Positions 6,033-22,677 of a stretch of DNA of 30,360 bases are shown piece by piece. The stretch lies in NCBI GenBank assembly GCA_028713935.1, contig JAQTNI010000012.1:1-30360 (forward strand), in the 5' to 3' direction. Within the stretch, counting starts at the first letter, position 1, and every line of letters starts with the position of its first letter. Origin of the DNA: Candidatus Iainarchaeum sp. (GTDB lineage: Archaea > Iainarchaeota > Iainarchaeia > Iainarchaeales > GCA-2688035). A program made the translations under genes and the position numbers. The notes under the pieces were generated by a model. It was not told the DNA's origin. It did no database searches and saw only the letters and a list, made by a program, of their open reading frames with translations.

Positions 6033-6104
6033 GCCTGTGTAGTTCAGTGATAGAATGCCATCTTGGTAAGGTGGAGGTCGAGGGTTTGATCCCCTCCACA
6101 GGCT
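6033..6104 (+). tRNA. tRNA-Thr(GGU)
   Basis: Acceptor GCCTGTG/CACAGGC plus T; D-arm GTTC/GAAT; anticodon stem CCATC/GGTGG with loop TTGGTAA (GGT); T-arm GAGGG/TTTGATC/CCCTC. No intron. Confidence 0.9.
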
Positions 6105-7249: not shown

Positions 7250-7301
7250 TCTTTATCTCTTCCAGTGTTGGAAGAGGAAACTCAAATTTTTCAAAATTCA
7301 T
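7155..7301 (-). CDS. 48-aa ORF with a strong SD: either a frameshifted N-terminus of the LAGLIDADG gene or a translationally coupled leader ORF
   Basis: GGAGGTGG (complement of 7307-7314) lies 5 nt upstream of the ATG at 7301. The product is MNFEKFEFPLPTLEEIKIAKRLAASNPEDLDD.... Its stop TAG (7157-7155) is overlapped by an in-frame ATG of the LAGLIDADG frame (ATGAATAG, 7162). Confidence 0.5.
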   Translation of the reverse strand: MNFEKFEFPLPTLEEIKIAKRLAASNPEDLDDRDIWILNEFCGSDSYE

Positions 7302-7340
7302 TCGAACCACCTCCAAAATAAAAAAGAAATTTTTTCTGGA

Positions 7341-7420
7341 GACGTTGAGTGCGTTGGAGGCATTAAACCCTTTGACCTGAGCAAAACGAAGGCAAAGGTT
7401 TAAGCCGAACAACGCACAAG
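7341..7420. ncRNA. candidate structured RNA or long imperfect hairpin (strand and function unknown)
   Basis: Nested stems. The outer stem is GTGCGTTG (7349-7356) with CAACGCAC (7410-7417), extendable to GAC/GTC. The inner stem is GGCATTAAACCCTTTG (7359-7374) with CAAAGGTTTAAGCC (7393-7406), 14 bp with 2 bulges and an 18-nt loop. Confidence 0.35.
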
Positions 7421-7470
7421 TCGTAAGAAAAAATTTGTTTAATGGAGGTGGCGAGAATTTAAGGAAAAAA

Positions 7471-8001
7471 CTAGAATTTTAATTCTTTAAAATCGTGGAT
7501 GTTTAATCCATATTTTTTGTAAACTTCTTCAACGCCAATTGAAGTTGCCTGTGAACGGGAAAAGCCGAGCAGTTTCACTGTTTTTTCAATTTCTGTTTTG
7601 CTTTTGGCTTCTATTTCCAAATAGGGGGGAATTTTTGGCCAAAAGTCAATTTCAATTTCTGTTTTGCCAAGCTTATAACTGATTCTTTTGTTTTCCTGAT
7701 AGGCTTTTGCAAAAAAACCAAGCTTGTTCAGCAAAAGATTTGTTTTTTCAAAATCGCTTACAGTTATTTCAGTTTCTTTTGTGCCGTCAATTTTGTTGCT
7801 TTGGATTTCTTTTACTGCAAGAGTTGTTTTTTCACCATTGTAGCGCAGCCTTAACCAATAGCCTGTTTTTCCCGGCATTAAGTCATAAACAAACCTGTGC
7901 ATATTGCGTTCAAGCACTTTTTTTGCACCGATTTTTTTTAACCGCGCTTTTACGCTTTCAACATCAATGCCAAGAATTTTTACTTCAAGCTCAGTTTCCA
8001 T
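7471..8001 (-). CDS. CYTH domain protein (CyaB-like class IV adenylate cyclase / triphosphatase family)
   Basis: 176 aa with the N-terminal ELEVKI signature (ExExK), then WLRLRY, TEIEIDFWP and PYLEIEA, which fit the CYTH beta-barrel pattern. Confidence 0.75.
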   Translation of the reverse strand: METELEVKILGIDVESVKARLKKIGAKKVLERNMHRFVYDLMPGKTGYWLRLRYNGEKTTLAVKEIQSNKIDGTKETEITVSDFEKTNLLLNKLGFFAKAYQENKRISYKLGKTEIEIDFWPKIPPYLEIEAKSKTEIEKTVKLLGFSRSQATSIGVEEVYKKYGLNIHDFKELKF

Positions 8002-8115: not shown

Positions 8116-8508
8116 ATGAAAATTCAGCCAAAAGAAAAAATGGTTTTTTTTGCAGTACTGCTGATTTTAATGATTGCCATTACTGGCTGTGTTGGCGGAG
8201 ATGCAAAAACACTTGAAAATGGCTGCAATCAATTGGAAGCAACTTTTGGAAATACTGATGGCGTGACAGAAGCAAAAACCTGTGTCCCGCCACAGGGAAG
8301 CCTGCTTTCTGATTTGGTTGCTTTCTCTGGGCAGGGAGATTCCACAAAAACTGCTTTTGTTGAGGCAACCTGCACGTATAACACTTGGCCTGCAAGCTGG
8401 TTCGCAAAATGGCAGATTCCAATAGTAACAGTGAATTCTTGCACTGATGGCTGCATAGTGAAGACAGATGGAGGCGCTGTTTGCGCTGAAAATTTTACTG
8501 CAACGTAA
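8116..8508 (+). CDS. Cys-rich secreted lipoprotein, paralog 1 of a 3-gene family
   Basis: Signal peptide plus lipobox (LMIAITGC). The mature part has 8 Cys after the lipobox Cys, in a pattern shared with the next two genes. SD AAGGTG (8105-8110). Confidence 0.65.
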   Translation: MKIQPKEKMVFFAVLLILMIAITGCVGGDAKTLENGCNQLEATFGNTDGVTEAKTCVPPQGSLLSDLVAFSGQGDSTKTAFVEATCTYNTWPASWFAKWQIPIVTVNSCTDGCIVKTDGGAVCAENFTAT

Positions 8509-8552
8509 TGCTTTGATAGGAATAATTGGATAATAAAAAAAAGGTGTTTTTT

Positions 8553-8996
8553 TTGAAAAAAAATTCTTTGAAAATTGCAATTGTTTTGCCTGTATTATTG
8601 GCAACAATTGCCTTGGCTGGTTGTGCTGGCGACCCTTTTCAGCAATCGCAGGCTTATTGTGATGCGCAAAGCCAGGCATATGGTGAAATTGCAAATATTT
8701 GCCTTCCGGCTGGCTCTCCCCAATTAAATGCTGCTGCGGGATTCAACCAAGCGCCTATTCCAACGTATGCAAGTGCAGTGCAGACCAAATGCGTATGGAA
8801 TCCTGGAGTTTTTGGAATTGGCAGCAGTTGGACTCTGACAATTCCTGTACTAAAGGAATGCACTCCAGACCAGTATGCTGGCTGCAAATTGGATTCTGAT
8901 GGAATAAATGCGGATTGTTATAACCCGACAAATGATGATGGGCATACAATCCCTCCGATTGACGATGGAACTGGCGGAACTTTGCCTGAAATGTAA
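8553..8996 (+). CDS. Cys-rich secreted lipoprotein, paralog 2
   Basis: The TTG at 8553 lies 6 nt after SD AAGGTG (8541-8546) and gives (M)KKNSLKIAIVLPVLLATIALAGC, a classic LAGC lipobox. The track ORF starts at 8526. The Cys pattern and the W-x-L/I-x-I/V-P/x-V motif are shared with its neighbours. Confidence 0.65.
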   Translation: MKKNSLKIAIVLPVLLATIALAGCAGDPFQQSQAYCDAQSQAYGEIANICLPAGSPQLNAAAGFNQAPIPTYASAVQTKCVWNPGVFGIGSSWTLTIPVLKECTPDQYAGCKLDSDGINADCYNPTNDDGHTIPPIDDGTGGTLPEM

Positions 8997-9053: not shown

Positions 9054-9635
9054 TTGAACCAGAAAGGAATTGCCCCTGCAGTAATTGTTTTGGCTGTAAT
9101 TGTAGTTCTTGGATTTGCATGGCTGTTTGTTCTTCCAGCAGTAATGGATTTGGTTAATGGAACCTGCAATGCTTTGGAAGAAAAATATCCTAATGGCGAT
9201 GCGTGGGAAAATGTTTGCCTTAACCCGAATGATCAGGCAGCAAAAGATTCTTTGGCTGCATTCGGCGTGAATATGAATTCTTTGGCACAGGACAGGAACA
9301 GCATTGCAAAGGTTTCCTGTGTTAAAAGCACGAGTGCTTTGTGCCCAATAATTCCCTGCTGGCAATTGCCAAGCGCAGAAATAACTGTAACCTGCGAGCC
9401 TGGTGAAAGATGTGTTAAAGCTGACAGTGCGCAGGAGGCCGCATGCGAAGCAAATATAGCGCCATGCAATAACAATGGAACCTGTGATGCCTGGGAAGAC
9501 AGTTCAAATTGCCCTGCTGATTGTCTTGTAGAAGGGCCCTGCAATAACAATGGAATTTGTGAAAACGGAAGCAATGATACAAACGACATAGGGGAGAATG
9601 CTGCAAATTGCCCCAATGACTGCATAGAATTGTAA
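9054..9635 (+). CDS. Cys-rich paralog 3 with an archaeal class III (type IV pilin-like) signal peptide and two C-terminal CNNNGxC...NCPxDC modules
   Basis: TTG start 5 nt after SD AAGGTG. The N-terminus MNQKG/IAPAVIVLAVIVVLGFAWLF matches the archaeal pilin/archaellin N-terminal pattern (K/R-G followed by [IV]-[SA]-P-x-I and a hydrophobic helix). The core aligns with paralogs 1 and 2. Confidence 0.65.
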   Translation: MNQKGIAPAVIVLAVIVVLGFAWLFVLPAVMDLVNGTCNALEEKYPNGDAWENVCLNPNDQAAKDSLAAFGVNMNSLAQDRNSIAKVSCVKSTSALCPIIPCWQLPSAEITVTCEPGERCVKADSAQEAACEANIAPCNNNGTCDAWEDSSNCPADCLVEGPCNNNGICENGSNDTNDIGENAANCPNDCIEL

Positions 9636-9735
9636 TTTTTAAATTTCTTATTTTTGTTATTTTCTTGTTTTTATGCCGGTTTTTGGCATGCACAAAAAAT
9701 AAATAGCCAAAGGGACTAATTATCATTTGGTTTGC

Positions 9736-10419
9736 ATGGCTTTGAATGAAGGGACAATTGAATCTCTGGCTTTAAGGTATGTAAAGCCGGGAATGGTTTT
9801 GGCTCTGGGCACTTCAGGGCATTCTGAAACTTTCTTAAAAAAAATTGCTTTTGAAATTGAAGAAAAAGGCCTGAATGTAAGCGTTGTGCCGACTTCCCAC
9901 AGGATAGCTGAATTGCTTGCAAGCCTGAAAATTCCAGTTACTTCTTTAAATGAAAATGAAATTGATGTTGCTTTTGAATTTGTTTCACAGGTTGACAGGG
10001 ATTTCAATTTTGTAAAAACAGATTCAACAAGCCTTGTGCGCGACAAAATGATTGCGCAAAGCGCTGAAGAACTGATTGTTGTTGCGGGCAAAAAAGATTT
10101 TGTGGAAAGAATAAGCGGCACAATTCCTTTTGAAATAGTGCATTTTGGATGGAAACGCACAATCATACAGCTTGAAAAGCTTGGAGAAGCACACCTGAGA
10201 AAAATAGGCGGAAAGGAATACAGGACTGAATCAAACAACCTGGTTGCGGACGTAAAAATTGACGATATTTATGATTTGTATGAAATAGAATCACAGGCAA
10301 AAGAAGTTCCGGGAGTAATAGAAACAGGCCTGTTCATTGGCTATGCTGACAGGATAATCCTGCATAACCACGGCCTTGAAGTGAAAAGCAGGCTTGATTT
10401 TGAAAAAAGCTTTTCTTAA
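9736..10419 (+). CDS. RpiA-like protein (ribose-5-phosphate isomerase A fold) with substituted signature motifs
   Basis: Collinear with canonical RpiA: ALRYVKPGMVLALGTSGHSE corresponds to the GxGTGST region, FVSQVDRD to DGADE, VKTDSTSLVRDK to KGGGAALTREK, and GVIETGLF to GVVxxGLF. ATG at 9736; the track ORF starts at the TTG at 9727. Confidence 0.65.
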   Translation: MALNEGTIESLALRYVKPGMVLALGTSGHSETFLKKIAFEIEEKGLNVSVVPTSHRIAELLASLKIPVTSLNENEIDVAFEFVSQVDRDFNFVKTDSTSLVRDKMIAQSAEELIVVAGKKDFVERISGTIPFEIVHFGWKRTIIQLEKLGEAHLRKIGGKEYRTESNNLVADVKIDDIYDLYEIESQAKEVPGVIETGLFIGYADRIILHNHGLEVKSRLDFEKSFS

Positions 10420-10551: not shown

Positions 10552-10640
10552 GCCTCGGTAGCTCAGCCTGGTGGAGCGTTCGACTCATAGGTTTTTATTG
10601 AGAAATCGAAAGGTCGCGGGTTCATATCCCGCCCGAGGCA
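10552..10640 (+). tRNA. tRNA with CAU anticodon (elongator Met, or Ile2 if C34 is modified) with a 15-nt intron
   Basis: Acceptor GCCTCGG/CCGAGGC plus A; D-arm GCTC/GAGC; anticodon stem TTCGA/TCGAA with CAT at 10586-10588. The insert GGTTTTTATTGAGAA (10590-10604) follows position 37. T-arm GCGGG/TTCATAT/CCCGC. It lacks the initiator-type A1:U72. Confidence 0.85.
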
Positions 10641-10742: not shown

Positions 10743-10750
10743 TTTATATA
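10743..10750 (+). promoter_or_regulatory. TATA box of the giant gene (predicts a leaderless or near-leaderless mRNA)
   Basis: TTTATATA is centred about 31 nt upstream of the ATG at 10778, with no SD between them. Confidence 0.5.
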
Positions 10751-10777: not shown

Positions 10778-13700
10778 ATGCCGGGAAGAATGGACAGGCT
10801 GCTTGCGCAAAAGCCGGACAAGGAATTTGAATTTGAGCCTACTTTGGCAAAAAGCCAAGGAGAAGGCTTTTCATGGCGGGTTTTGAAAAACAAAAAAATT
10901 GTTTTTGGCATTGCCCTTGCAGCAATAGCAATAGCTGCAGTTTTAACAGCGCTGTTTTTTGCTTTTCCAGCGCAGGAAGGAAATTTTGAAATTATTGTAA
11001 AAAACTCTGATGGAAGCGCGTTAAGCGGCATTGAAGTGAAATATTCTGTTGATGGGCTTGAAGCAACTGCAAAAACAAATTCTGGCGGAAAAATTTTTTT
11101 GCATGCCAAAAAAGACTCGGAAATTTCTGTTTTAATTGAACAACAAAGCATAAATGGCACTGATTATTCAGTTTATTCCTCTGATTTTGTTGTTGCGGAT
11201 TCTTTTTCAAAGGAAATCCTGCTTGAAAAGCTTGGCGAAACAATTGATGAACGAACAATTGTTTTTCAAAAAACAGACGGTTCGCGCATAACAGGAAAGC
11301 TTATTACAATCAAATTGTCCTGTGCAAATGGATTCAGGCTTGCACAGGAAACAGCAACTGATTCAGACAAAGACGGTCAAATAAAAATAGTGAAACCGGA
11401 AGAATGCAATATTCTTTCAGCAAGGCTGATTGCGCCTCTTGATTACAGGCAGGCAAATTTTACAATTGGCTCTTCTTCAAGCATTGTACAACTTGAAAGC
11501 AATTCAGAAGCCTCGCCAAAAGGCGAGATACGTGTTAAAATTGTTGATTCCGAAAACAATCTTGTTACTGCCACTGATTTTACTGTGCAGTTGATCGCTG
11601 CAGAAGGCTTTGTCCGGGATGAAAAAAAAACAGATGGCCGCGGAGAAATTGTTTTCACTGATGTTGAACTTGGAACCTATTTTATAAGCGCTTTTGATTA
11701 TGCGGGAGAATATGAAATAATGCAGGATTCGGCAGTTGTAATAAGCTCTGGTTTGGAACAGGAAAAAACATTGTTTGCTGCAAAATCCACTAAAGGCACA
11801 ATTGATGTTAGTGTAATTGACAAAGCCACAAAAATTGGCATTCCAAATGCAACAGTGCAATTGTTTGCAGCTTCCGGAGACCTTCTTGCGGAAGAAACAA
11901 CTGGAAGCGAAGGTTTCACAGTAAAATTTTCAGTGAAAGAAGAAGGCACTTACAAAGTGAGTGCAATGCAGGAGAATTATTTGCCGAATGAAACAACTGT
12001 TGAAACAAGGGGAGAAGCAACAATTGAGCTTGAGGAACTGACAAGCGGGAATTCAGGCATAATAGAGGTTAGCGTAGTTGACGAAGACGAATTGCCAGTG
12101 GAAAACGCAAAAGTTGTCCTCAAAAACCCTGCGGGAGAAACAATGCCCTATCCTGCAAAATACACTGATGCAAAAGGCATTGCAAAATTTTCAGGGGTTT
12201 CTGAAGGGGCTTATTATGCATATGCGGAAAAATTTCCCACATTTGGGGATAATTCTGCAGATGCAATGGAAATAGACATCAGGGGCAAAAACAATTTTAT
12301 TGTGCGGCTGGACATTGGCACTGCGACAATAAAAATAAGCGCTTTTGAAAGCAGTGAAATAATGCTTGAAGAGTCAGAGGCTGAAATTTATGCGGAAAAC
12401 GGGGAATTATTGCAAAGAATTGCAATGCCTGATGGCACAGCGGAATTTTCCACAAAGGCCGACAAAAAGGTTTTTGCAATAGCAAAGATGCCCGGCTATA
12501 ATTCTGTCCAGACAATTCCAATGCAATTGTGGCCCAATGAAACAATTGAATTCAATTTGCAGATGCGGCAAAAAAATTCAGGTGCTTTGCCTGAAATGAA
12601 GTTTGAAGGGATTTTTAATGGAAGCCAGAAAACAGGCATGCTGAAAGCGGGAAAAGAATACCTTGCATTGTTCAGCATTGAAATCCAGGAAAACAATGAA
12701 ATTTCAAGGGGAGGAATTCATTTTAGGGTTGGGGAAGAACAAAGCCTTGAAACAGAAAAAATTGCGATTACTGGCGCATTATTTGCAATGCCTGATTCTG
12801 TTTACGGCGGAAAAAGCTTTACTCCGAATCTCGGCTATGATGCAGACCTTTCAGATTCGATAACAGAGGCAAAATGGGTTAACATTGAATTTGTGCCTGG
12901 TTCGGAAGGCAAAAAATATTTTGTGGGCTTTGAATTCAAGGTGAAAAAAGAAACCCAGCCAAATGGCCTGCTTGCATTGCATTACAGGGCATGGTTTGAA
13001 AGCAATTCAGGAAAATTTCTGCGGATTCCGGAAGACTCTGAGTTGGGGGATTCTGAAAGCACTGCATCAAAACAGGGGTTGTATGCAAAGACACTTGATT
13101 TGGAGTTTGGAGAGGGAATTGACACTGACTGCGGGGAAAGCGTTTGTTACGGCAATGAATGGATTTTTGGCAACCATGAAAAAGAGCTGCAGAGGGAAAA
13201 TTATTCGCTTGGCCTTGACAGGGATTACAACCTGAATTTTGAAATAAAAAACAATTCCGATGCAGCAATTGAGAAGCCGGAAATTTCCATAATTGGAAGC
13301 AATGCGGAAGATGTGGAATTCAAAAACCTGATAGCTTACAATAAAGCAAAAAAAACATTGGAATCAAAAAAAGGAAACATTGAAAATTTTTCCCTTGATG
13401 GCATTGGACAGGGAGAAACAGTAAATTTCAATTTGCTTTTCACTCCAAAAAAACCCAGCCTCGGCTATATTGAAACAACAATTTCAAGCAATGGCAAAGA
13501 AATCTTTTCAGGAACAATCTGGGTTGACACACAGGCGGGAAAAACAATGGCCCTGGAAATAAAGCCAGAGGAAATTCCGGCTTTTTTTGAAGCAGACATA
13601 AATGCACTGGTTTCAACGGAAGACGAAGGGCCTGTGCAGGATGCTGAAATATGGATGACAAGGACTCTTGCTGACAATTCGATTGCAAAAGAAAAAGCAA

Positions 13701-16700
13701 ACACAAGCAGCAGAGGAGAGGCAAAATTTAAGTTGGCGGGTGCAATGCCAGGCACAAAAATTGTTTTTAAGGCATTAAAAGACGGCTATTATGATGAGCC
13801 GGTTGAAAAAATAATAAGTGAAAAAGTATTTGAAATTTCAGAGGAAGCGCTTGAAGCGCAGATAGACACAAAAGAAGACACGCAGGAAACTCTTAGCACT
13901 GCAATATCAAACCTTACTGCCGCTGAACTTGAAATTTTTTCTGTTTCAATTTCAGGAAGCACAAAAAGCCTGCTTGACAAGGAAGCAATGGACAATTTTT
14001 TCTCTTCCCTCAAAGGGACAAAAATTCAGGCATTGGAAAGCAAAACAATTGAAATGGTAAAAGTGCAATTAAGCCAAGGCACAGAAATTGAAAAAGACGA
14101 AACACTTGCCTTGCAGCTTCTTGTTACTGTTATAGAGCCGAAAACAGGCAAAAAATTTGATGCAAAAATTCCTTTGGCAGTAAAAATCAGGCCTTTTCCA
14201 ACAGCGGCAATGAGCTGCATAAAAGTCGACAAGCAGGAATGGCTTGGCAGCACAATAGGCAATCATGCAGTGCTGGAACTCGAAATGGAAAACACCTGCT
14301 CTGAAGAGGGAAAAAGCGAAGTACTGGCAAGGTTATTGGCAAAAACAGTTTGGGCTGAAAATTCAATTGGAATTGTGGAAATTCTTGAAGCGGATTCTCC
14401 CGATGGCGCAGCGGAAATTTTAGGCGAAAACAACTGGAGAACAGTGATGCAGGAAATAGGGGCGGGAAGAAAAATAAAAGTAACACTGGTTTTCACGCCA
14501 AAGCCGGAAACTCTGGGAAAAACAGCGGAATTCAAAATAATTCTTGACGGGCAGAAAGAAACAGAACGCGGATTAAAATTTGTAGGCAGCACTGAAATAA
14601 ATGCAAAAATAGACATTGCAAACATTGGGCAATGCATAAAAACAGACAAAAGCCTGCTTGAAATAAAAAAAGGCGCAAGCTCTGCGGATTTTTCAATTGA
14701 CACTACGGGCTGCCAGGCAGCAGTGGAAATAGGGTTTTGCAGGAATGATGATGGCTGCAAAGGCGGGGCAGCAGAGGGCACAATACAATTAAGCGCAAAA
14801 AGCATTATGCTTTCCCCTTCCAATCCAAAGGCAAAAATAATTGTTTCAAAAGGCTCTATTGCGGGAATGTACGGCGTTAACATTGAAGCAAAAACCCAGA
14901 ACAGCGATTGGGAGCAGATAAAAACAATTGATGTTTTAATAGAGCCGAATGACAATGCATTGTTTACTCTTGACAAATACGAATTTTCAATTATTGGAAA
15001 CAGCGCTAAAGACAGCGCAACAGCATTCAACCCGAATCTAAGCGAAAATGTTGAAGTGATTGCGCCTGTTGATTCCTGGTACCAGAGCGTGCAAAACACT
15101 GAAAGCTTTTTTGACCCAGAGCTTGCAGGGACAGGAAAAACCCATCTTGAACTTGCAAATGCAAAAATTGCAGCGGATTTGGCAAAACAAAAAATGGAAG
15201 AAATGGCACAAAAAGCATCAGGAGAAGCAGACAAAGGCCAACAGCTAAGCGATGCCGCAAAAAAAGCCCTTGAACAGGCAAAACAAGATTCAGACCAGGC
15301 AGACCAAAAGGCACAGGATGTCACTAGCCAGGCAGGGCAATTGGCATCACTCGCTGGGCTTCTTCTTGGGCAAGGCCAGGCTGTCGAAGCAGCAGTTGCT
15401 GCAAACCCATTCTGCAAAGCGGAATTGGTGGCAGCAAAAGCAATGAATAAGGCATTACTGACTGCAAAAACAGCTACAATGGGTGCAAACACTGGGGCAC
15501 AGGCAGCATCAAGCGCAACAAGCCAGGGAAAAAATAATTGCGAACAAGGCCAACAAATGGGCAATCAGGGGCTGGACAATGCTGTTCTTGCACAAAAAGG
15601 GCCTTGTGAAACACAAACAATTTCCAGCAGGGCAGGGGAAGGCGCGCAACAGTCTGCACAGGCAGCACAGCAAATGATGCAGGCGGCACAGCAGGACCAG
15701 CAATGCGGGCAGCAAATGCAAAATGCTGGAACACAATTCGCCAAGGTTGGAACAAATCTTGCGGGAACAGGGGCACAAATCGGGATAGTGGAAACACAAT
15801 CACAAATAATTGCGGCATGTGTGACTGCAGGGCCAGCCCTTACTGCATTCAAAACAAAATTTTATGCATTCAAAGCAACTGAAAACGGATTGACAAGCGC
15901 AAATGCTGCAGCGCAAAGCCAAGCTGAAACAGCAAAACAATCCGCTGACCAGGCAAACAATGCTGCCCAAGCAGCAAATAACCAGAATAATATTGCGAAT
16001 GACCAGCTGCAAAAGCTTTCTGTTGTTGAAACAAATGCAGAGGAAGCCGCAGGATTTGGAAAAGGAAGGACAATTGGAATTCTTGGCTCTTATGTTGGAT
16101 TGGCAACTCTTGTTGGAAGCTACAAGGGAAATGCATACAATGCATATCTTGGAAACTGCCCAAACGGCTTCAAAAGCACTCTGCCAGATTTTGTCACAAA
16201 CCTTAAAGAAGATTCTTCAGACATTGTTCTGGACAATCAGAATATTGTCGGAAACTGGAATACTGAAGAGGCAAAAATTTTTGGCGAATACGAAAGCCAG
16301 ACAGCTGGAATTTCCTTTGAAAACCAAAACCTTGAATCCGAAAAGCCAGTTTATGCTCTTGCAAGATTATTGGCTTACAGGCACAAGCACGTAGAGCCAA
16401 CAACGATAATAACAGGAACATATGCGGGTGCAGGAACAGCAGATGCATCGGCAGCAGTTGCAGGAACAAGCTTCGGGCCTTTCAATGTGCCAGATGAAGA
16501 AGAAAAAATGCTTGTTGAACAAAAATTCCACTTGAAATTCATTGCAGGCGAAAAAAAAGCCTCGCCAGCAGCAAATTCCGATGATGCCTGCTTGAACGGC
16601 GCAATGTTTGGCATTACAGGGGAAAAAGCACTGCCAAAAATAAAATTGAATTGGAACTGGAATGAAAGCGAAGGAATTTCAGAAGACAATTGCATTGCGG

Positions 16701-18286
16701 AAAACAGCAAAGCCATTTATTGTGATGCAGCGCAATTCAGCATAATGGCAAGCAAGCGCCTTAAAACACTGCAGGAATTCGTGGAAAAAAATTCTTCCAT
16801 AAGCTGCCCAACAAACAATGCCATTGAAAGCCTGAAATGGATTGTTGACAAATGGAACCCATATATCAATGAAATCGGAGGCCAGCAGATTCCAACAGAC
16901 CTGCAGGAACTGAACCCCGAATGCTGGATGCCAAAATCAACATTTATTTACGATGGCAAGCCAGCAATAAATTATTATGTTGAGGAAGCAGACAGCAAAA
17001 AAAGCGTTTCCTGGACAAGCAAAATAAAAAGTCCGGAAGGGCTTGAAAAATACATAAGAAGCAATGTCCTGCTCATAAAAGACGGTTATTCTGAAAATTT
17101 CCAGAAAGACTTTGCAAATTATTACAGCACAGCAAAATTAATGGATGCGCCCGAATGGTTTGTAAAAAATTCAAGCGGAAAATGGCTTGATTATTTCCTC
17201 AACAACGAAAAATTAAAATTCTCGCAAAAATTTTTGGATTCAACTGAAATGCCGAACGCAGGAATGTTTGAATCATTCTTCAACATTGATTTTGGGAAAA
17301 ACTGGGGATTTTTCAGCGAAGCAAAAACCCCGAAAGCAACAGTAAAAATAGAATTGAATTTCAAAAAAGAGCCTGAAGAAGGAAGCATGTTTTATTACCT
17401 GCCATTTGACGCGGAAATAGGATCGCAGGGAGGGGCAGGCAGGGAAGGTTATGGATTAAGTTATCAGAACAGCGAAAAAGAATTCCTTGTTGCAAATGCA
17501 AACAATGTGCCAATTTCAACAGTTTCAGGCAATGGCAGCGGAATTGCAGCGCTTTACACAAACACAACAGAAGACATAAGAATAACCAACAGCAGTTTTG
17601 CAAAAAGAGGCTTATTGCTCGGCATAAAAGAAACAGGAAGCCAGAATGAAAAACAACTGGATTTTTATCCCACAAACGCAACTCCGGCAATTGCAGAAAT
17701 AAGCTCTGAACAAAGCACAGTGCCTTTCAGCGCATATTACAAAGTCACTGAAGCCGGAGTTCCTGCAAAAGCAACTGAAAATTTTTCATTCTGGACAGCT
17801 GCAGGGGAATGCAAAAATTTCGATGAAAAGCCATTATTGGAAAAATTCAATTCCTTGCCTGACAGGTATGCGGAAGAGCTTGATTCCGCAGAACAAGCCT
17901 CGGATTCCTATGCTTTTGACTTTGAAAAAGCAGACAGAAGCGGCAAACTTTACCTTAAAACAATTTTTTACACTCCTGCAAGCAAGGCATATGCAGTCAC
18001 AGGAATTCTTAACCCTGACCCAATGCAAAAAGCTGCAATCACATTCAAAAGTGCAAACACTGGCTTCCAGGCAGGCATTGATCTTGATGGAACAGGGCAA
18101 AAATTCAACAACAGAAAAGCACAGGAAAATGCAGCAGGACTAGATAATCTTCTTGAACTTGTAAAAGAAAAAAGGGTTTGCATTACAAACAGCCAGGAAG
18201 AAACAAATCTCTGGTGGAACGAACTTCCCCTCCTAGAAACAGACACGGGCAATGGCTCAATAGCAGGCTTTAACGGAGAATGCTAA
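10778..18286 (+). CDS. giant (2502 aa) N-terminally membrane-anchored surface protein with CarboxypepD_reg-like beta-sandwich repeats, a Gln/Ala-rich helical module and a large uncharacterised C-terminal region
   Basis: Single uninterrupted ORF. TM anchor IVFGIALAAIAIAAVLTALFFAF (aa about 41-63). There are six tandem repeats (aa about 69-590) plus a seventh (about 930-1000), of the type IxVxVxD...PxxxAxVxL...TDxxGxxxF..ExGxY, e.g. IEVSVVDEDELPVENAKVVLKN...TDAKGIAKFSGVSEGAYYAYA. Q/A-rich segment at nt about 15148-16050. Many N-x-S/T sequons and paired Cys. Confidence 0.85.
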   Translation: MPGRMDRLLAQKPDKEFEFEPTLAKSQGEGFSWRVLKNKKIVFGIALAAIAIAAVLTALFFAFPAQEGNFEIIVKNSDGSALSGIEVKYSVDGLEATAKTNSGGKIFLHAKKDSEISVLIEQQSINGTDYSVYSSDFVVADSFSKEILLEKLGETIDERTIVFQKTDGSRITGKLITIKLSCANGFRLAQETATDSDKDGQIKIVKPEECNILSARLIAPLDYRQANFTIGSSSSIVQLESNSEASPKGEIRVKIVDSENNLVTATDFTVQLIAAEGFVRDEKKTDGRGEIVFTDVELGTYFISAFDYAGEYEIMQDSAVVISSGLEQEKTLFAAKSTKGTIDVSVIDKATKIGIPNATVQLFAASGDLLAEETTGSEGFTVKFSVKEEGTYKVSAMQENYLPNETTVETRGEATIELEELTSGNSGIIEVSVVDEDELPVENAKVVLKNPAGETMPYPAKYTDAKGIAKFSGVSEGAYYAYAEKFPTFGDNSADAMEIDIRGKNNFIVRLDIGTATIKISAFESSEIMLEESEAEIYAENGELLQRIAMPDGTAEFSTKADKKVFAIAKMPGYNSVQTIPMQLWPNETIEFNLQMRQKNSGALPEMKFEGIFNGSQKTGMLKAGKEYLALFSIEIQENNEISRGGIHFRVGEEQSLETEKIAITGALFAMPDSVYGGKSFTPNLGYDADLSDSITEAKWVNIEFVPGSEGKKYFVGFEFKVKKETQPNGLLALHYRAWFESNSGKFLRIPEDSELGDSESTASKQGLYAKTLDLEFGEGIDTDCGESVCYGNEWIFGNHEKELQRENYSLGLDRDYNLNFEIKNNSDAAIEKPEISIIGSNAEDVEFKNLIAYNKAKKTLESKKGNIENFSLDGIGQGETVNFNLLFTPKKPSLGYIETTISSNGKEIFSGTIWVDTQAGKTMALEIKPEEIPAFFEADINALVSTEDEGPVQDAEIWMTRTLADNSIAKEKANTSSRGEAKFKLAGAMPGTKIVFKALKDGYYDEPVEKIISEKVFEISEEALEAQIDTKEDTQETLSTAISNLTAAELEIFSVSISGSTKSLLDKEAMDNFFSSLKGTKIQALESKTIEMVKVQLSQGTEIEKDETLALQLLVTVIEPKTGKKFDAKIPLAVKIRPFPTAAMSCIKVDKQEWLGSTIGNHAVLELEMENTCSEEGKSEVLARLLAKTVWAENSIGIVEILEADSPDGAAEILGENNWRTVMQEIGAGRKIKVTLVFTPKPETLGKTAEFKIILDGQKETERGLKFVGSTEINAKIDIANIGQCIKTDKSLLEIKKGASSADFSIDTTGCQAAVEIGFCRNDDGCKGGAAEGTIQLSAKSIMLSPSNPKAKIIVSKGSIAGMYGVNIEAKTQNSDWEQIKTIDVLIEPNDNALFTLDKYEFSIIGNSAKDSATAFNPNLSENVEVIAPVDSWYQSVQNTESFFDPELAGTGKTHLELANAKIAADLAKQKMEEMAQKASGEADKGQQLSDAAKKALEQAKQDSDQADQKAQDVTSQAGQLASLAGLLLGQGQAVEAAVAANPFCKAELVAAKAMNKALLTAKTATMGANTGAQAASSATSQGKNNCEQGQQMGNQGLDNAVLAQKGPCETQTISSRAGEGAQQSAQAAQQMMQAAQQDQQCGQQMQNAGTQFAKVGTNLAGTGAQIGIVETQSQIIAACVTAGPALTAFKTKFYAFKATENGLTSANAAAQSQAETAKQSADQANNAAQAANNQNNIANDQLQKLSVVETNAEEAAGFGKGRTIGILGSYVGLATLVGSYKGNAYNAYLGNCPNGFKSTLPDFVTNLKEDSSDIVLDNQNIVGNWNTEEAKIFGEYESQTAGISFENQNLESEKPVYALARLLAYRHKHVEPTTIITGTYAGAGTADASAAVAGTSFGPFNVPDEEEKMLVEQKFHLKFIAGEKKASPAANSDDACLNGAMFGITGEKALPKIKLNWNWNESEGISEDNCIAENSKAIYCDAAQFSIMASKRLKTLQEFVEKNSSISCPTNNAIESLKWIVDKWNPYINEIGGQQIPTDLQELNPECWMPKSTFIYDGKPAINYYVEEADSKKSVSWTSKIKSPEGLEKYIRSNVLLIKDGYSENFQKDFANYYSTAKLMDAPEWFVKNSSGKWLDYFLNNEKLKFSQKFLDSTEMPNAGMFESFFNIDFGKNWGFFSEAKTPKATVKIELNFKKEPEEGSMFYYLPFDAEIGSQGGAGREGYGLSYQNSEKEFLVANANNVPISTVSGNGSGIAALYTNTTEDIRITNSSFAKRGLLLGIKETGSQNEKQLDFYPTNATPAIAEISSEQSTVPFSAYYKVTEAGVPAKATENFSFWTAAGECKNFDEKPLLEKFNSLPDRYAEELDSAEQASDSYAFDFEKADRSGKLYLKTIFYTPASKAYAVTGILNPDPMQKAAITFKSANTGFQAGIDLDGTGQKFNNRKAQENAAGLDNLLELVKEKRVCITNSQEETNLWWNELPLLETDTGNGSIAGFNGEC

Positions 18287-18343: not shown

Positions 18344-18577
18344 ATGAATGCAAAAACAATTTTGGGAATAATCCTTGTTATTCTGGGATTTGCAATTTAT
18401 TTTTTGGCAGGAAGCCTGCATTCTTTGCCGATAACCATTTGGGGTTGTTTCCAAATGGGTGGCTATGGTGTTAATATTGGCTGTGCCTTAGTTAACGCAA
18501 TTCCAGCAATTATAATAATAATTATTGGCGTAATCCTAATTTATTTGGGAAAAAACAAAATACAAAAAAATGAATAA
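18344..18577 (+). CDS. small membrane protein (2 TM), function unknown
   Basis: 77 aa with hydrophobic segments ILGIILVILGFAIYFLAG and AIPAIIIIIIGVILIYLG. A TATA-like TTTATTAA lies about 30 nt upstream. Confidence 0.5.
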   Translation: MNAKTILGIILVILGFAIYFLAGSLHSLPITIWGCFQMGGYGVNIGCALVNAIPAIIIIIIGVILIYLGKNKIQKNE

Positions 18578-18646: not shown

Positions 18647-19330
18647 ATGAAAAAGCAAAAACAAATCCTAATTCAGGACAACAAAATAGAGGAAAAAACA
18701 GGCGAAATCCAAAAAATCTGGCAAAATGCAAAAATAAAAAGCGATGCAAAAAGCCTTGCAATTTTTTTGGGATTATTCTCGCTTGCAGTCGGAGGCAGGG
18801 TTGCACTGCAATACGTTCCAAGTGTGGAACCCATAATTCCAATTGCAATTCTCGCAGGGCTCTTATTTGGCATGAAAGAAGGCGCTGGCTTAGGTGCAGG
18901 CGCATTTGTGGCAAGCAATTTTTTTATATGGGGTTTGCAGGGGCCATGGACAATTTTCCAGGCATTGGGAGCAGGAATTCCAGGCTGCCTTGCAGGGGCA
19001 TATGGAAAAATCAAAAAGCCAAAAACAAGGGACCTCGTTTTATTAAGCCTTGCGGGAACAATTATTTTTGAAATAACAATGAACATTTCAGGTGCAGCAA
19101 TGGGAATTGGAGTGCTGGGGGCATTCTCGCTTTTCACTCTGCCATTGTATTTCGTCACTTCGGCGCCATTTTCAATTGTTCATGTGCTAAGCAACCTTGT
19201 TTTTGCAAGGGCACTGGCACCATTATTAAAATTAAGGAGGCAAGACAATGAATTCCAAGTTGTTTCCATTAGCAGGCATTCTCCTGCTGGCACTTCTACT
19301 CTTAGGGTGTACAAGCACAGGGCAGACTAG
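18647..19330 (+). CDS. polytopic membrane protein, possibly an ECF-type substrate-capture (S) component-like protein
   Basis: 227 aa with about 5-6 hydrophobic helices. The GRVALQYVPSVEPIIPIAILAGLLFG pattern recalls DUF6580/S-component proteins that often neighbour DUF4430 genes (from memory, unverified). The 3' end overlaps the next gene by 83 nt. Confidence 0.45.
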   Translation: MKKQKQILIQDNKIEEKTGEIQKIWQNAKIKSDAKSLAIFLGLFSLAVGGRVALQYVPSVEPIIPIAILAGLLFGMKEGAGLGAGAFVASNFFIWGLQGPWTIFQALGAGIPGCLAGAYGKIKKPKTRDLVLLSLAGTIIFEITMNISGAAMGIGVLGAFSLFTLPLYFVTSAPFSIVHVLSNLVFARALAPLLKLRRQDNEFQVVSISRHSPAGTSTLRVYKHRAD

Positions 19331-19658
19331 CCTGATAACAGCGGAAAAACAAGTAGCAACAATAAAAGCAATTGATTCTGAAGGAAAAGAAATAGTAAAC
19401 AGGACAATTTCAATTGAAAAAGGAAAAAATGCTTTGGAAGCATTCAGGCAGGTTGCAGGCGTTGAAGCAAAAACCTATGTCGGAATGGGCTCCCTGGTCA
19501 CTTCAATAAACGGAATAACGCCCGATTCAGAACACTATTGGGGCTTGTACATAAACGGAGAATTCGCTGACAAGTCAATTGACGCATACACAATTGACAA
19601 GGACATTACAATTGAAATGAAAATGGAAAAAATTGATTTCAGCAAAATGGGCGGCTAA
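19248..19658 (+). CDS. lipoprotein with a DUF4430-like (transcobalamin-like beta-grasp) domain
   Basis: Strong SD AAGGAGG 6 nt upstream. Signal peptide plus lipobox LLLLGC. The motifs TSINGI, YWGLYINGEFA and SIDAYTI are typical of DUF4430. Confidence 0.65.
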   Translation: MNSKLFPLAGILLLALLLLGCTSTGQTSLITAEKQVATIKAIDSEGKEIVNRTISIEKGKNALEAFRQVAGVEAKTYVGMGSLVTSINGITPDSEHYWGLYINGEFADKSIDAYTIDKDITIEMKMEKIDFSKMGG

Positions 19659-19682
19659 AATTTAAATTTTAAAAAAGGAATT

Positions 19683-19707
19683 CTTTTGCTGAGCAAAAGC
19701 TTTTTTT
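19683..19707 (+). terminator. hairpin plus T7 tract after the DUF4430 gene
   Basis: CTTTTGCT-G-AGCAAAAG (19683-19699) is followed by C and TTTTTTT (19701-19707). Confidence 0.55.
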
Positions 19708-19816
19708 CCCAAGGCTTTATGATGAACAGGCTGAGGCGGACTGTGCCACAATGCGCAGGATGAAGAAGATTATGAGTTCTGAAACCTTTCTTAAAAAGAA
19801 GCCTTGGGAAAAAATT
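19702..19816. repeat. 16-nt inverted repeat pair carrying the TTTTCCCAAGG motif, flanking about 80 nt
   Basis: TTTTTTCCCAAGGCTT (about 19702-19717) and AAGCCTTGGGAAAAAA (about 19799-19814) are perfectly complementary. The same core recurs at 2790-2801 (-), 2935-2949 (+), 2973-2986 (+) and 10424-10437 (-). Confidence 0.7.
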
Positions 19817-19864
19817 TCCAATTAAACTAATTTAATAACCTTTTTACTTTAGAATTATTTCCAA

Positions 19865-20016
19865 GCCCCTGTGGTCTAGACCGGTTAAGGACTCCACCCT
19901 CTCACTGCCCTTTCTTTTCTTTAAGAAAGAAAAGAAAGTGTAAGTTGCCCAAAGAAAAGAAAAGGGAACGACGCAAGAGCGCGGTGGATACCTGGGTTCA
20001 AATCCCAGCGGGGGCA
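19865..20016 (+). tRNA. tRNA-Glu(CUC) with an intron of about 77 nt
   Basis: Acceptor GCCCCTG/CGGGGGC plus A; D-arm GTCT/GGAC; anticodon stem CCACC (19894-98) with GGTGG (19983-87) and loop CTCTCA (CTC at 19901-03). The insert at about 19905-19981 contains a 13-bp hairpin. T-arm CTGGG/TTCAAAT/CCCAG. Confidence 0.85.
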
Positions 20017-20051: not shown

Positions 20052-20543
20052 ATGAAAAAAGTTGATTTTCAAGAAATCGTGGCCAAGGCAAAAAATCTGG
20101 CAAAATACAACAAAACATGGCATTTTCATATGCTTGGAAGAGATTGCAAGTTCAACAACAACAGGGGAAAATTCAGAATAACCTTTGAGGATGAATCAAG
20201 TGGCAAAAGTTTTTACTCTGTTTTTGATAACAAACCTATTAAGGAATCAAAAAAGCTTGCTGATTTAATGTACGGACAAGGTTTTCTTAGGAAAAAAGAA
20301 AAAGGAGAACATAACCCTGAATTTGACTTAATCTTGAAAAAAGCGAAAGAACTGACTGAACAGGGAATAGAATGGCACCATCACCATCTGCACCCAAATT
20401 GTATATTCAATAAGCTCAAAGGAAAACACTGCATTGTTCTTGAGGACCCAAAAACCCCGAATTCATTAATTGCCGTATATAATCAAAAGCCAATGGAAGA
20501 TTTAGTAAAAATTGAAAAATTGTTCTACAAGGATTCCAAATAG
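20052..20543 (+). CDS. hypothetical protein built from two tandem copies of a His/Cys-containing domain of about 65 aa
   Basis: Internal duplication: AKAKNLAKYNKTWHFHMLGRDCKFNNNRGKFRITFED...VFDNKPIKESKKLADLMY aligns with KKAKELTEQGIEWHHHHLHPNCIFNKLKGKHCIVLED...VYNQKPMEDLVKIEKLFY. Confidence 0.6.
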   Translation: MKKVDFQEIVAKAKNLAKYNKTWHFHMLGRDCKFNNNRGKFRITFEDESSGKSFYSVFDNKPIKESKKLADLMYGQGFLRKKEKGEHNPEFDLILKKAKELTEQGIEWHHHHLHPNCIFNKLKGKHCIVLEDPKTPNSLIAVYNQKPMEDLVKIEKLFYKDSK

Positions 20544-20628
20544 CACGCTTTCTTATCAGCGGAAATTCACTGGAAAAATGCTTTTAAACTTCCTTATGGA
20601 TAATTTGTTTTAGAAAAGGGGTTTTGAT

Positions 20629-21477
20629 ATGGCTGCAAACCAGGATTCCGCTTTGGTTGTTTTTCAGAACAAGAAAATAAGGCGGGTATGGCATGAGAAC
20701 GAATGGTACTTTTCAGTGGTTGATGTAGTTGAGGCATTGACAGACAGCCCGACACCACGGCAGTATTGGGGCAAAGTAAAAGACAGAGAATTTTCACAGC
20801 TTGAGCTGTCCCCAATTTGGGTACAACTGAAATTGCCTTCGAGCGATGGCAAGGAATATGCTACAGATTGTGCAAACACCAAATCAATGTTTAGAATTAT
20901 TCAATCTATTCCATCGCCAAAAGCAGAGCCGTTCAAGCGCTGGCTCGCCCAAGTTGGATATGAACGCGTCCAAGAAATCGAAAATCCCGAATTGTCCCAG
21001 AAACGAATGAAAGAACTCTACAAAGCGAAAGGTTATTCGGATGAATGGATTGAAAAAAGAGTCAGAGGAATTGCGGTTAGGCAGGAATTGACTGATGAAT
21101 GGAAAAAACGCGATATTCGGGAAGAGCGGGAATTTGCGATTTTGACCAATGAAATAAGCCAGGCAACTTTCGGCAAAACAGTTGAAGAATACAAAAAATT
21201 CAAAAGATTGAACAAGGAAAATTTGCGCGACCACATGACGGATTTAGAATTAATCTTCACCATGCTCGGCGAAGCCTCCACAACCAAAATCGCGCAAAGC
21301 AAAGATGCGCAAGGATTCATTCAAAACAAAAAAGCTGCGCGATTAGGCGGACAAATTGCTGGTGGTGCAAGAAAAAAACTTGAACTGGAATCAGGAGAAA
21401 AAATCAGCACTCCAGAAAACTATCTGGGCGAACCAGAAACAAAGAAAAGAAAAAAATTAAAAGAGCCAATGAATTGA
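20629..21477 (+). CDS. Bro-N domain protein (DinD / phage antirepressor-like family)
   Basis: The N-terminus VFQNKKIRRVWHENEWYFSVVDVVEALTDS fits the Bro-N pattern (F...IR....g..WF.a.DV..aL). The downstream KAEPFKRWLAQVGYERVQEIENPE region is typical of DinD-like proteins. Lys-rich tail. Confidence 0.65.
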   Translation: MAANQDSALVVFQNKKIRRVWHENEWYFSVVDVVEALTDSPTPRQYWGKVKDREFSQLELSPIWVQLKLPSSDGKEYATDCANTKSMFRIIQSIPSPKAEPFKRWLAQVGYERVQEIENPELSQKRMKELYKAKGYSDEWIEKRVRGIAVRQELTDEWKKRDIREEREFAILTNEISQATFGKTVEEYKKFKRLNKENLRDHMTDLELIFTMLGEASTTKIAQSKDAQGFIQNKKAARLGGQIAGGARKKLELESGEKISTPENYLGEPETKKRKKLKEPMN

Positions 21478-21657
21478 TAGGGCATTTATTTTTCTATTTT
21501 TTGCCCAGCAGGGGCACTAAACCTTCTATTTCTGTAGCATAAGAGGCAAAGAAAAAAAGCCAGAACAGAAACCGCATTAATCAAACTCCAAAATGAGGCG
21601 GCAAGTAATAAATATAATAATATGTATATAATATTGTATACATATAAGTTGATTTAT

Positions 21658-22677
21658 ATGAAATTGATACGCGCTTCATTTGATGGATTAGTAGAAGTTG
21701 GCGAAAAAATGTTGCTCGCGGAGATAAAAGAGTATTCCGATGAATACATCAGAAACCACGGAATTTCTTTAACCAAAAATGAGGTTAAGTCATTCCACGA
21801 GCTAAGAGAAAGGACTTGCTTGGTGGTTTACAACACTACAAAGAAAAAATATTTTTTGTTCAGCGGCCAAGACATATCTGATTACTTGGACCGACAAAAA
21901 AGAAGCTTTGCTACAACACACAGAGCTTTGTACAGAATGTTTTCCAAGAAAGGGGAACCAAAAGTAAAAATATTCGACCCCGTTTTTGAGGAAAAAATCT
22001 TAGAGCTTAGCCGTAAGACACTGCAATTCCTTAAGCCGAAATTAGCAAACATTGAAGGAGTATTTCTCTTTGGGAGCTTTGCGAGAAATGAGCAAAAGGA
22101 AAAATCAGACATTGACTTGCTTGTGATTGCGGATAAAAAAATTGATTTGGGCAAAAAGGAAAAATTTGATTTTTTAATCAAGACAAGGGAACAATTTGAA
22201 ATAGAAATCAGGACAGACTCAACTCTTTTTCCAAGACAGGTTGTAAGCGAGGCAAAGCCAATTTTGAATGAATCCCTGTTGGATGAATTAAAAAAAGTAA
22301 AGCCAAAGCCGGATTTTAAGGAAGTTTTTGATTCTACACTCGGGGCTTTCAAAAAAACAAAAGAGTTATTGGAAATGAACCATGGCACTGGGCTTTTGGA
22401 ATCAAATGTAGCAATATACTCCCTCATTCTTAGGCTAAAAACTCTTTTCATTATCCAATGCCATAAAAAAAGCATAGCCTTTTCAAACAAAAAATTCAAG
22501 GAGCTGCTGGAAAAATATGGCTTCAGCGAACAAAAAATCAATGCCCTGCTGGAAGTCTGGCAAGCCGAAAGGGATAATAAAAAAACCAGCCAAAAAATTT
22601 TATTGGCTGATGCCCTAAAGCTTTTTGATGCAGCCAAAATAGAATTTTTAAAGACCGAAGCACTGGTGAAAAAATGA
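21658..22677 (+). CDS. nucleotidyltransferase (MNT/Pol-beta superfamily) domain fusion protein
   Basis: NTase signature GVFLFGSFARNEQKEKSDIDLLVIADKK (G-S-x9-12-D-x-D), flanked by an unknown N-terminal domain of about 130 aa and a helical C-terminal region of about 150 aa. I prefer the ATG at 21658; the track start at 21622 lies in an AT-rich promoter-like palindrome. Confidence 0.65.
   Translation: MKLIRASFDGLVEVGEKMLLAEIKEYSDEYIRNHGISLTKNEVKSFHELRERTCLVVYNTTKKKYFLFSGQDISDYLDRQKRSFATTHRALYRMFSKKGEPKVKIFDPVFEEKILELSRKTLQFLKPKLANIEGVFLFGSFARNEQKEKSDIDLLVIADKKIDLGKKEKFDFLIKTREQFEIEIRTDSTLFPRQVVSEAKPILNESLLDELKKVKPKPDFKEVFDSTLGAFKKTKELLEMNHGTGLLESNVAIYSLILRLKTLFIIQCHKKSIAFSNKKFKELLEKYGFSEQKINALLEVWQAERDNKKTSQKILLADALKLFDAAKIEFLKTEALVKK

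Follow-up and report, generated by a model that had tools for sequence, protein, structure and literature searches.

A giant predicted surface protein of Candidatus Iainarchaeum sp. belongs to a very large unannotated family

The open reading frame (ORF) at positions 10778–18286 of contig JAQTNI010000012.1 from Candidatus Iainarchaeum sp. (the 30,360-nucleotide stretch analysed here, hereafter the window) encodes a giant protein of 2,502 residues, which belongs to a very large, unannotated family that is nearly confined to Iainarchaeota among named genomes. The source phylum, Iainarchaeota (formerly Diapherotrites), is placed in the kingdom Nanobdellati/DPANN. Within this Iainarchaeota-wide family, the window protein is a solitary, derived paralog or subtype. 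It was deposited under the name 'hypothetical protein', which is also the source annotation of every family relative returned, and no published description of this family was found in the literature searched. We hold it about evenly probable that the protein acts, as its sequence would suggest, as a non-enzymatic contact or tethering protein built of a stalk and a head. Giant surface proteins are a known theme in DPANN archaea; the fold-orphan head, the disulfide-closed hairpin and the cluster of tandem giant genes with small transmembrane (TM) and HerA-like proteins are undescribed in the same literature.

The giant-protein family and its C-terminal head

The following features of the gene and its head carry the family assignment.

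10778–18286 (+): giant ORF, 2,502 residues plus stop, ATG start, intact
16157–18283 (+): family-defining C-terminal head, residues 1794–2502 (709 residues), AlphaFold2 predicted local distance difference test score (pLDDT) 82.4, predicted template-modelling score 0.73
16589–16810 (+): most conserved head stretch, residues 1938–2011, C..G...G.TG..ALPK.KL.W.W ... YCDATQFSI ... CP

The family was revealed by an exhaustive profile search with the C-terminal 709 residues, which returned 788 cluster representatives at E ≤ 1e-3 and 516 at E ≤ 1e-30, whereas word-indexed homolog searches had recovered only 8, 3 and 7 proteins. Among the top matches, the full-length proteins all have the head at the extreme C-terminus, and the shorter matches appear to be fragments. 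The window protein covers positions 1–710 of the head-profile hidden Markov model (HMM). In an alignment of 106 full-length representatives (2,206–3,251 residues, median 2,452, interquartile range 2,359–2,553), domain order and repeat number are fixed and 164 columns are at least 80% conserved. Residues 51–1450 and 1800–2502 of the window protein are collinear with the family, with occupancy mostly above 0.9 (0.86–1.0 over residues 51–1450), and only residues 1451–1790 are clade-specific.

The taxonomic range was assessed by scanning one genome per GTDB species with a 10-sequence head alignment; 130 encoded relatives were confirmed and 72 loci were kept. The labels of these loci are Iainarchaeum, ainarchaeum or Diapherotrites (33), Micrarchaeota (3), 'archaeon' only (33) and other (3), and 33 of the 39 phylum-labelled loci are Iainarchaeota. 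The three other labels, Thaumarchaeota, Chloroflexi and Falkowbacteria, all come from one study and belong to loci of iainarchaeal type; therefore, these three loci are probably mis-binned. A viral origin of the family was rejected, since a search of IMG/VR returned no relatives on viral contigs.

The gene itself is sound. Collinear, full-length orthologs of 2,508, 2,503 and 2,468 residues were found in independent assemblies, with head identities to the window protein of 78%, 64% and 53%, respectively. The ratio of nonsynonymous to synonymous substitution rates (dN/dS), calculated against two orthologs, is about 0.2 in each segment, and purifying selection acts across the entire ORF. The general risk of chimeras in contigs of metagenome-assembled genomes (MAGs) is all that speaks for an assembly artefact or a non-coding stretch. 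Against it stand the collinear orthologs from independent samples, the dN/dS value in all segments, the absence of tandem DNA repeats from the ORF and a GC content that is even except in the Q/A-rich block described below (48%). The ORF is therefore not an assembly chimera, the probability of an artefact being close to nil, and the 2,502-residue ORF of the preliminary description of this DNA is real.

AlphaFold2 modelling covered the head only. An alignment of 10 sequences gave a poor model (pLDDT 58), the Foldseek matches of which are meaningless, and an alignment of 31 diverse sequences gave the confident model listed above. In this model, an N-terminal beta-sandwich is followed by a Cys-rich helical part (residues ~1984–2140) and a large beta-rich part, and the head terminates in a conserved C-terminal Cys. 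Invariant head residues include Asp 2102, Asp 2111, Tyr 2206, Arg 2222, Tyr 2225, Asn 2271, Thr 2302, Trp 2339 and Trp 2480, together with four or five Cys pairs, one of them formed with the final residue; no catalytic or binding site could be assigned to these residues. Foldseek searches of the 31-sequence model against PDB and BFVD returned nothing at E ≤ 1e-3, the lowest E-values being 0.038 and 0.01, respectively. The template-modelling scores of the top PDB matches were below 0.2, and the best matches were jelly-roll and carbohydrate-binding-module-like scraps with no meaningful superposition in either library. Moreover, the head had no match in Pfam, NCBIfam, PHROGs or PDB sequences (profile search, three alignment depths). 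The preliminary description had been unable to assign these ~700 residues and had proposed structure prediction followed by Foldseek; the prediction gave a confident model for the head, no significant fold match was obtained, and the region remains unassignable.

The same description had recognised no catalytic domain in the protein, and our searches agree. Pfam, NCBIfam and PHROGs yielded only generic beta-sandwich families, and no catalytic domain was found in these libraries or in PDB sequences, nor in 18 diverse family members, whose Pfam scan likewise gave beta-sandwich families only. The full-length family profile had a sole match among PDB sequences, to NOMO2, in the repeat region.

Two sets of loci depart from the usual form of the family. 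At L001 (5490–12964; same contig as L023), a family member is spread over two overlapping ORFs (1,496 and 1,054 residues); the gene is either truly split or has been broken by a frameshift or assembly error. The annotated 987-residue protein P0010 is the C-terminal part of this member. At L004 (1–7389) and L005 (1–7493), the first giant genes (2,562 and 2,569 residues) have CarboxypepD_reg matches and no match to the C-terminal-domain HMM, and a multi-TM gene of ~156 residues lies between the first and the next giant gene. These first giants may represent a third, more divergent giant type.

Architecture, topology and the derived linker

The remaining features of the gene, from its putative promoter to the start of the head, are as follows.

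10743–10750 (+): TATA-box-like sequence TTTATATA, 28 nt upstream of the ATG
10778–10888 (+): predicted cytoplasmic N-terminal tail, residues 1–37, without the LEDKYY..IPVYK.VDPIDK.VPSF motif
10889–10975 (+): signal-anchor TM helix, residues ~38–66, Kyte-Doolittle (KD) 19-residue maximum 2.74
10982–12577 (+): six tandem CarboxypepD_reg/transthyretin-like beta-sandwiches, residues 69–600, by Pfam and hhalign
12578–15097 (+): middle ectodomain, residues 601–1440, beta-rich modules of unassigned type
13229–13480 (+): module of a second repeat type, residues 818–901, aligned by hhalign to residues 1165–1257
13595–13828 (+): seventh CarboxypepD_reg-like beta-sandwich, residues 940–1017, hhalign probability 93–96%
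14270–14548 (+): module at residues 1165–1257, partner of residues 818–901, by hhalign
15128–16057 (+): Q/A-rich helical linker, residues 1451–1760, with Cys 1546, 1588, 1610, 1643 and 1681, clade-specific
16070–16123 (+): uncharged Gly-rich amphipathic helix TIGILGSYVGLATLVGSY, residues 1765–1782

The N-terminal region holds a single hydrophobic segment, preceded directly by four K/R residues; the N-terminus should therefore be intracellular. We infer a type-II (N-in), single-pass membrane protein with ~2,430 C-terminal residues outside the cell. An N-terminal TM segment is present in nearly all full-length family members listed, and many members carry the cytoplasmic motif LEDKYY..IPVYK.VDPIDK.VPSF, which the window protein lacks. 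Upstream of the gene, the spacing of the putative promoter element TTTATATA is consistent with a leaderless archaeal transcript; the motif occurs twice in the window, a count reached by 15 of 100 shuffles.

The ectodomain begins with the beta-sandwich repeats. CarboxypepD_reg (PF13620) scored 48.8 bits against a Pfam gathering cut-off of 32.3, and Big_1, SdrD_B and SpaA likewise exceeded their cut-offs. Profile-profile alignment placed the copies at residues 69–152, 160–242, 250–336, 341–425, 428–~510, 517–~600 and 940–1017, with hhalign probabilities of 93–99%, but 50–76% for the second copy (residues 160–242). A conserved Cys pair (C182/C210) falls within the six-repeat region, and three more lie in the middle ectodomain (785/790, 1147/1174 and 1286/1312). 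Pfam and PDB-sequence searches of the middle ectodomain gave no match, and the two modules of the second repeat type are weakly similar to each other (hhalign probability 67.5%, E = 5e-5). The giant protein contains 24 Cys, 18 of which are conserved in at least 92% of the family representatives. Residues 1501–1700 consist of 20–23% Ala and 14–19% Gln, and a PDB-sequence search of this Q/A-rich block gave no match. Thus, the TATA box, the signal-anchor, the six tandem repeats plus a seventh, the Cys-paired modules and the Q/A-rich block, all of which had been read from the sequence in the preliminary description, were recovered here.

Comparison of the linkers showed where the window protein departs from its family. 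In about half of the family, a strongly hydrophobic, Gly/Ala-rich segment of 40–55 residues lies between the ectodomain and the head; its KD value reaches up to 3.0, it has a two-helix look, and some members have a CPPC turn. Cys column 1432 ('C-D-W') immediately precedes this segment and column 1794 ('DPC') immediately follows it. The two columns co-occur (both in 53 members, neither in 46, only 1794 in 7, only 1432 in 0; Fisher p = 1e-22, uncorrected for phylogeny). Members with the pair have a median linker of 79 residues, hydrophobic in 74%, and members without it have a median linker of 294 residues, with an even linker Cys count in 89%. Across the family, even linker Cys counts are found in 89–96% of members; in the window clade, Cys 1794 together with an odd number of linker Cys makes an even total, and C1588 and C1643 are jointly lost in the closest paralog (P0002). 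This conserved parity and the covariation of 1432 with 1794 indicate that the two ends of the linker come together outside the cell, on the oxidising side. Both large domains would then be extracellular, and the hydrophobic segment would turn back as a hairpin instead of crossing the membrane once. The conserved Cys parity thus argues for a location of the giant protein outside the cell, the placement originally proposed.

The window protein has a ~360-residue, Cys-stapled, Q/A-rich insert in place of the hairpin, with a maximum KD of only 1.26, and no Cys at column 1432. The insert ends in the 18-residue TIGILGSYVGLATLVGSY helix, which is likely a remnant of the family's membrane hairpin. Neither this helix, nor its match in position to the disulfide-closed hairpin of the paralogs, nor the tandem-gene cluster described next appeared in the preliminary description.

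Elsewhere in the phylum, the giant gene mostly comes second in an array of two or three tandem paralogs (~38 loci). Clustering of the heads separates mostly upstream from mostly downstream copies, and the window protein falls among the latter. Many tandem pairs combine an upstream copy with a long linker and a downstream copy with the hydrophobic hairpin. On the same strand, 3' of the tandem giants, lie five small multi-TM proteins of 82–138 residues (30–42 loci), followed by an antisense coiled-coil protein of ~160 residues (43 loci), a protein of ~504 residues (39 loci) and PolB. Examples of this canonical cluster among loci L013–L079 are as follows.

L014, 12140–16250: canonical cluster
L045, 14250–17075: canonical cluster

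None of the five small membrane proteins had a match in Pfam or NCBIfam. The ~504-residue protein is HerA-like: it matches PDB 4d2i (E = 1.3e-4), and of 36 members, 9 match Pfam DUF87 and 1 matches HerA_C. The Walker A motif (GxxxxGK[ST]) is missing from nearly all of its members. The window encodes no HerA-superfamily NTPase, and its small downstream proteins do not resemble the five small multi-TM proteins of the canonical cluster. Therefore, the window protein, which lacks the N-terminal motif, the Cys-closed hydrophobic hairpin, Cys 1432 and the tandem paralog with its small-TM/HerA-like cluster, is a derived subtype. Locus L012, from the same MAG as the ortholog at L009, holds a tandem pair whose second gene carries the canonical N-terminal motif; the lineage therefore has both a canonical pair and a solitary copy.

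Candidate functions and comparison with known systems

In the reading that we favour, the six transthyretin-like beta-sandwiches would form the first part of a stalk, which the Cys-stapled beta modules and the seventh sandwich would extend and stabilise through disulfides. The Q/A-rich, disulfide-stapled helical linker (310 residues, 1451–1760) would come next, ending in the amphipathic Gly-rich helix, and the conserved head with its unmatched fold would stand at the far end. The head would be held tens of nanometres from the membrane and would bind a conserved partner, which may be another cell, a surface or the cell's own envelope. Both the stalk-and-head geometry and the binding role of the head are inferred.

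Several observations weigh against this reading. The fixed architecture, the high conservation and the lack of repeat-number variation are atypical of adhesins. In the canonical paralogs, the 1,400-residue ectodomain may have both ends at the membrane, through the TM helix and the hairpin, which would favour a compact or arch-shaped assembly over an elongated stalk. Conserved residues of the head (Asp, Arg, Tyr and Asn) could make up an active site of unrecognised type. In addition, N-glycosylation sequons are not enriched in the giant protein (21 vs. 20.5 expected), which is also unlike surface-layer (S-layer) proteins.

Bacterial fibrillar adhesins with SdrD B-repeat or SpaA-type stalks resemble the giant protein in combining an anchor, a beta-sandwich stalk and a distal globular domain. 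However, these adhesins carry a C-terminal sortase signal, whereas the family is anchored by an N-terminal TM helix; its repeat number is fixed, its sequence conservation is high, and it has no known adhesive domain. Of the features that define fibrillar adhesins, a tandem-repeat stalk and a surface anchor were found, but no adhesive or lectin domain was detected with Pfam, PDB or Foldseek, and the repeat number is invariant in the 106 representatives. The HMM searches suggested in the preliminary description thus placed CarboxypepD_reg above its cut-off and recovered no recognised adhesive or lectin domain. Its proposal of an episymbiont host-attachment device was not supported, because the family is too conserved for a typical adhesin and the iainarchaeote lineage has been reported as possibly free-living (PMC10936187). 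With its conserved order and length, its 164 conserved columns and a dN/dS of ~0.2, the family looks more like an envelope or machine component than a fast-evolving adhesin.

The same constancy underlies an alternative that we regard as unlikely: the protein would be an envelope scaffold or molecular ruler, that is, a spacer or S-layer-associated tether that sets envelope geometry and does not serve to bind other cells. Across the phylum, the proteins hardly vary in length (median 2,452 residues, interquartile range 2,359–2,553) or in domain order, 164 columns are at least 80% conserved, dN/dS is ~0.2, the family is present in dozens of species-level iainarchaeal genomes, and its profile matches NOMO2 (E = 2.1e-6 over profile positions 245–478). 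NOMO rods are thought to serve as spacers. Like the family, NOMO (a subunit of the BOS complex; PDB 9c7v_B) is a single-pass membrane protein with long tandem CarboxypepD_reg/prealbumin-like beta-sandwiches. However, it is a eukaryotic endoplasmic reticulum protein of 1,267 residues, the match is limited to the generic repeat region, and nothing in it corresponds to the middle modules, to the linker or hairpin, or to the 700-residue head. Moreover, a simple ruler would not need several paralogs per genome with divergent linkers, and the large conserved head suggests specific recognition.

Archaeal S-layer proteins, such as the MSTP-like class of several DPANN phyla and the Ig-like csg of Halobacteria, are also large, extracellular and rich in beta-sandwiches. 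A published survey assigned the Iainarchaeota S-layer protein to a candidate of 1,039 residues (10.1101/2024.05.28.596244), which is a different protein, not matched by the giant protein. In addition, the giant protein has no S-layer Pfam match (MSTP/DUF1608-type), no PGF-CTERM and no C-terminal TM segment or anchor. An S-layer identity, the concern raised with the original description, is weakened by the published assignment and by these missing features.

Bacterial alpha-2-macroglobulins (A2Ms) share with the family beta-sandwiches of the macroglobulin-like (MG) type and an N-terminal membrane tether, a known feature of bacterial A2Ms that could be counted for a membrane-anchored, A2M-like protease trap. 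The window protein has weak bMG3 and MG4 Pfam matches, and bMG3 matched 15 of 18 family members at E ≤ 1e-3 (best 8e-15). However, both window scores lie below their gathering cut-offs (bMG3 18.6 vs. 34.9; MG4 22.5 vs. 24.7), and neither the window protein nor the 18 relatives match a thioester domain. The motif CxEQ is absent from the window protein, C[GLAS]EQ occurs in 1 of the 106 members, the 'CEQ' at 1588 is conserved in just 3% of the family, and no receptor-binding or bait-region match was obtained. A protease trap of this kind is thus extremely improbable, and membership in the A2M family was rejected, given the lack of a thioester.

The SPEARE giant proteins of Nanohaloarchaeota (DPANN), which have reportedly been proposed to act in cell-cell interaction, are said to combine protease, adhesion and restriction-endonuclease domains. 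Unlike these, neither the window protein nor the 18 relatives have a Pfam match to a SPEARE-type serine protease or restriction-endonuclease domain, and no SPEARE protein was present among the giant-family homologs.

The canonical loci bear on a further, decidedly unlikely analogy, in which the family would form the extracellular arm of a multi-component membrane machine for transport or exchange of DNA or protein, loosely like Ced, type IV (T4SS) or type VII (T7SS) secretion systems. Such a machine would comprise two giant paralogs, five small membrane proteins, the coiled-coil protein and the HerA-like protein, and the window copy would be an accessory or alternative arm. The tandem paralog 5' of the gene in ~38 loci, with the two paralog groups in conserved order, fits this proposal, as do the same-strand small multi-TM genes 3' (30–42 loci) and the HerA-like ~504-residue protein (39 loci), and the conserved cytoplasmic N-terminal motif of many members could be a docking site. 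Ced- and T4SS-type systems combine a HerA/VirB4-like ATPase with small membrane proteins, and the canonical loci resemble them in encoding small multi-TM proteins and a HerA-superfamily protein. However, the HerA-like protein lacks Walker A in nearly all members, no VirB or Ced match was obtained, and the small proteins match no Pfam or NCBIfam family. The partner genes are absent from the window and from the neighbourhood of the orthologs of the window gene, and the window protein lacks the N-terminal motif. The cluster is also syntenic with PolB, so the linkage may partly reflect conserved gene order.

The hairpin suggests, again by analogy, a membrane-inserting or bridging device, in which the hairpin would enter a target membrane and bridge or fuse two cells. 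In favour of it, the hairpin is Gly/Ala-rich with KD values of up to 3.0 and sometimes a CPPC turn, is closed by a covarying Cys pair on the oxidising side and lies ~1,400 residues from the N-terminal anchor. However, so hydrophobic a hairpin is most readily explained as a second anchor in the membrane of the cell itself, the corresponding window segment reaches a KD of only 1.26, Foldseek searches of the head against PDB and BFVD revealed no similarity to a known fusogen, and no host is known for Iainarchaeota. We therefore consider this device very unlikely.

A broader proposal, which we offer tentatively and think unlikely, is that the family is the extracellular part of an undescribed, phylum-wide iainarchaeal envelope machine that bridges or penetrates a neighbouring membrane or envelope. 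Such a machine would consist of tandem giants, one often with a long soluble linker and the other with the disulfide-closed Gly/Ala-rich hairpin, together with the five small membrane proteins, the coiled-coil protein and the HerA-like protein without Walker A. In this scheme, the window protein would stand alone as a variant whose hairpin has been turned into a Cys-stapled, Q/A-rich arm.

Iainarchaeota are uncultured. These phylum-restricted surface proteins of ~2,400 residues, with a fold-orphan head of 700 residues and in many cases a disulfide-closed hydrophobic hairpin, are concrete targets for cryo-electron tomography, metaproteomics and binding studies. Binding of the head to other cells, one option in the stalk-and-head reading, would make the family both a marker of DPANN cell-cell contact and a mechanism for it; a role as envelope scaffold or machine component would represent a new type of archaeal envelope architecture. 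The window copy itself sits outside the canonical cluster, the most intriguing gene context.

Neighbourhood of the solitary gene

The window is an archaeal contig, with an intron-containing tRNA and genes for DUF116, DUF2666 and an HMPTM-type radical-SAM protein. The genes around the giant ORF are listed below.

8116–8508, 8526–8996 and 9054–9635 (+): Cys-rich secreted or lipoprotein-like ORFs of 130, 156 and 193 residues, with lipobox or TM N-termini
9727–10419 (+): rpiA (RpiA), between the Cys-rich trio and the giant gene
10552–10640 (+): intron-containing tRNA (Rfam, 57 bits), between rpiA and the giant gene
18344–18577 (+): 77-residue ORF with two TM segments, directly downstream of the giant gene
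18647–19658 (+): 227-residue multi-TM protein and overlapping DUF4430 lipoprotein

The giant gene is solitary both in the window and in its close relatives (loci L002, L008, L009 and L011). The synteny comparison with related MAGs that had been proposed showed that the gene order of the solitary locus is kept across the clade: small Cys-rich secreted proteins, rpiA, (tRNA), the giant gene, the 227-residue multi-TM protein and the DUF4430 lipoprotein.

The Cys-rich ORFs contain 7, 7 and 16 Cys, respectively, the third with repeated 'CNNNGxC' motifs, and the trio is syntenic upstream of rpiA in L002 and L008. No family match was obtained for any of the three, and paralogy was demonstrable only for the first two (E = 4e-6). 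The giant gene had been described as following a trio of Cys-rich secreted paralogs; the trio does lie upstream, but rpiA and the tRNA intervene and the paralogy holds for the first two members only. ARAGORN assigned no anticodon to the tRNA; by eye, its loop reads CAT (Met or Ile2), followed by an intron of ~15 nt.

At the place of the 77-residue ORF, L002, L008 and L009 have only a gap of ~40 nt, and no homolog was found in any fetched locus. Because the ORF is absent from these close relatives, its link to the giant gene is uncertain. The 227-residue protein and the DUF4430 lipoprotein follow the solitary giant gene in all four close relatives and are probably a separate small-molecule uptake pair; DUF4430 resembles the cobalamin-binding beta-domain.

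The window also encodes both types of ribose-5-phosphate isomerase within 30 kb, RpiB (LacAB_rpiB) at 137–598 (+) and the RpiA listed above. A free-standing LAGLIDADG_3 ORF at 6044–7249 (−) abuts a tRNA-Thr (6033–6104), and L003 has LAGLIDADG ORFs in different positions (6701–7618 and 18838–19989), including one between rpiA and the giant gene. These shifting positions suggest mobile homing-endonuclease genes. Finally, the segment at 20052–22677 (+), between the DUF4430 and DUF116 genes, encodes a Vsr-like protein (weak match), a Bro-N protein and a nucleotidyltransferase (Polbeta/NTP_transf_2). The syntenic L002 carries ParE-toxin-type genes in their place, and the segment looks like a variable island, possibly of defence or mobile genes.

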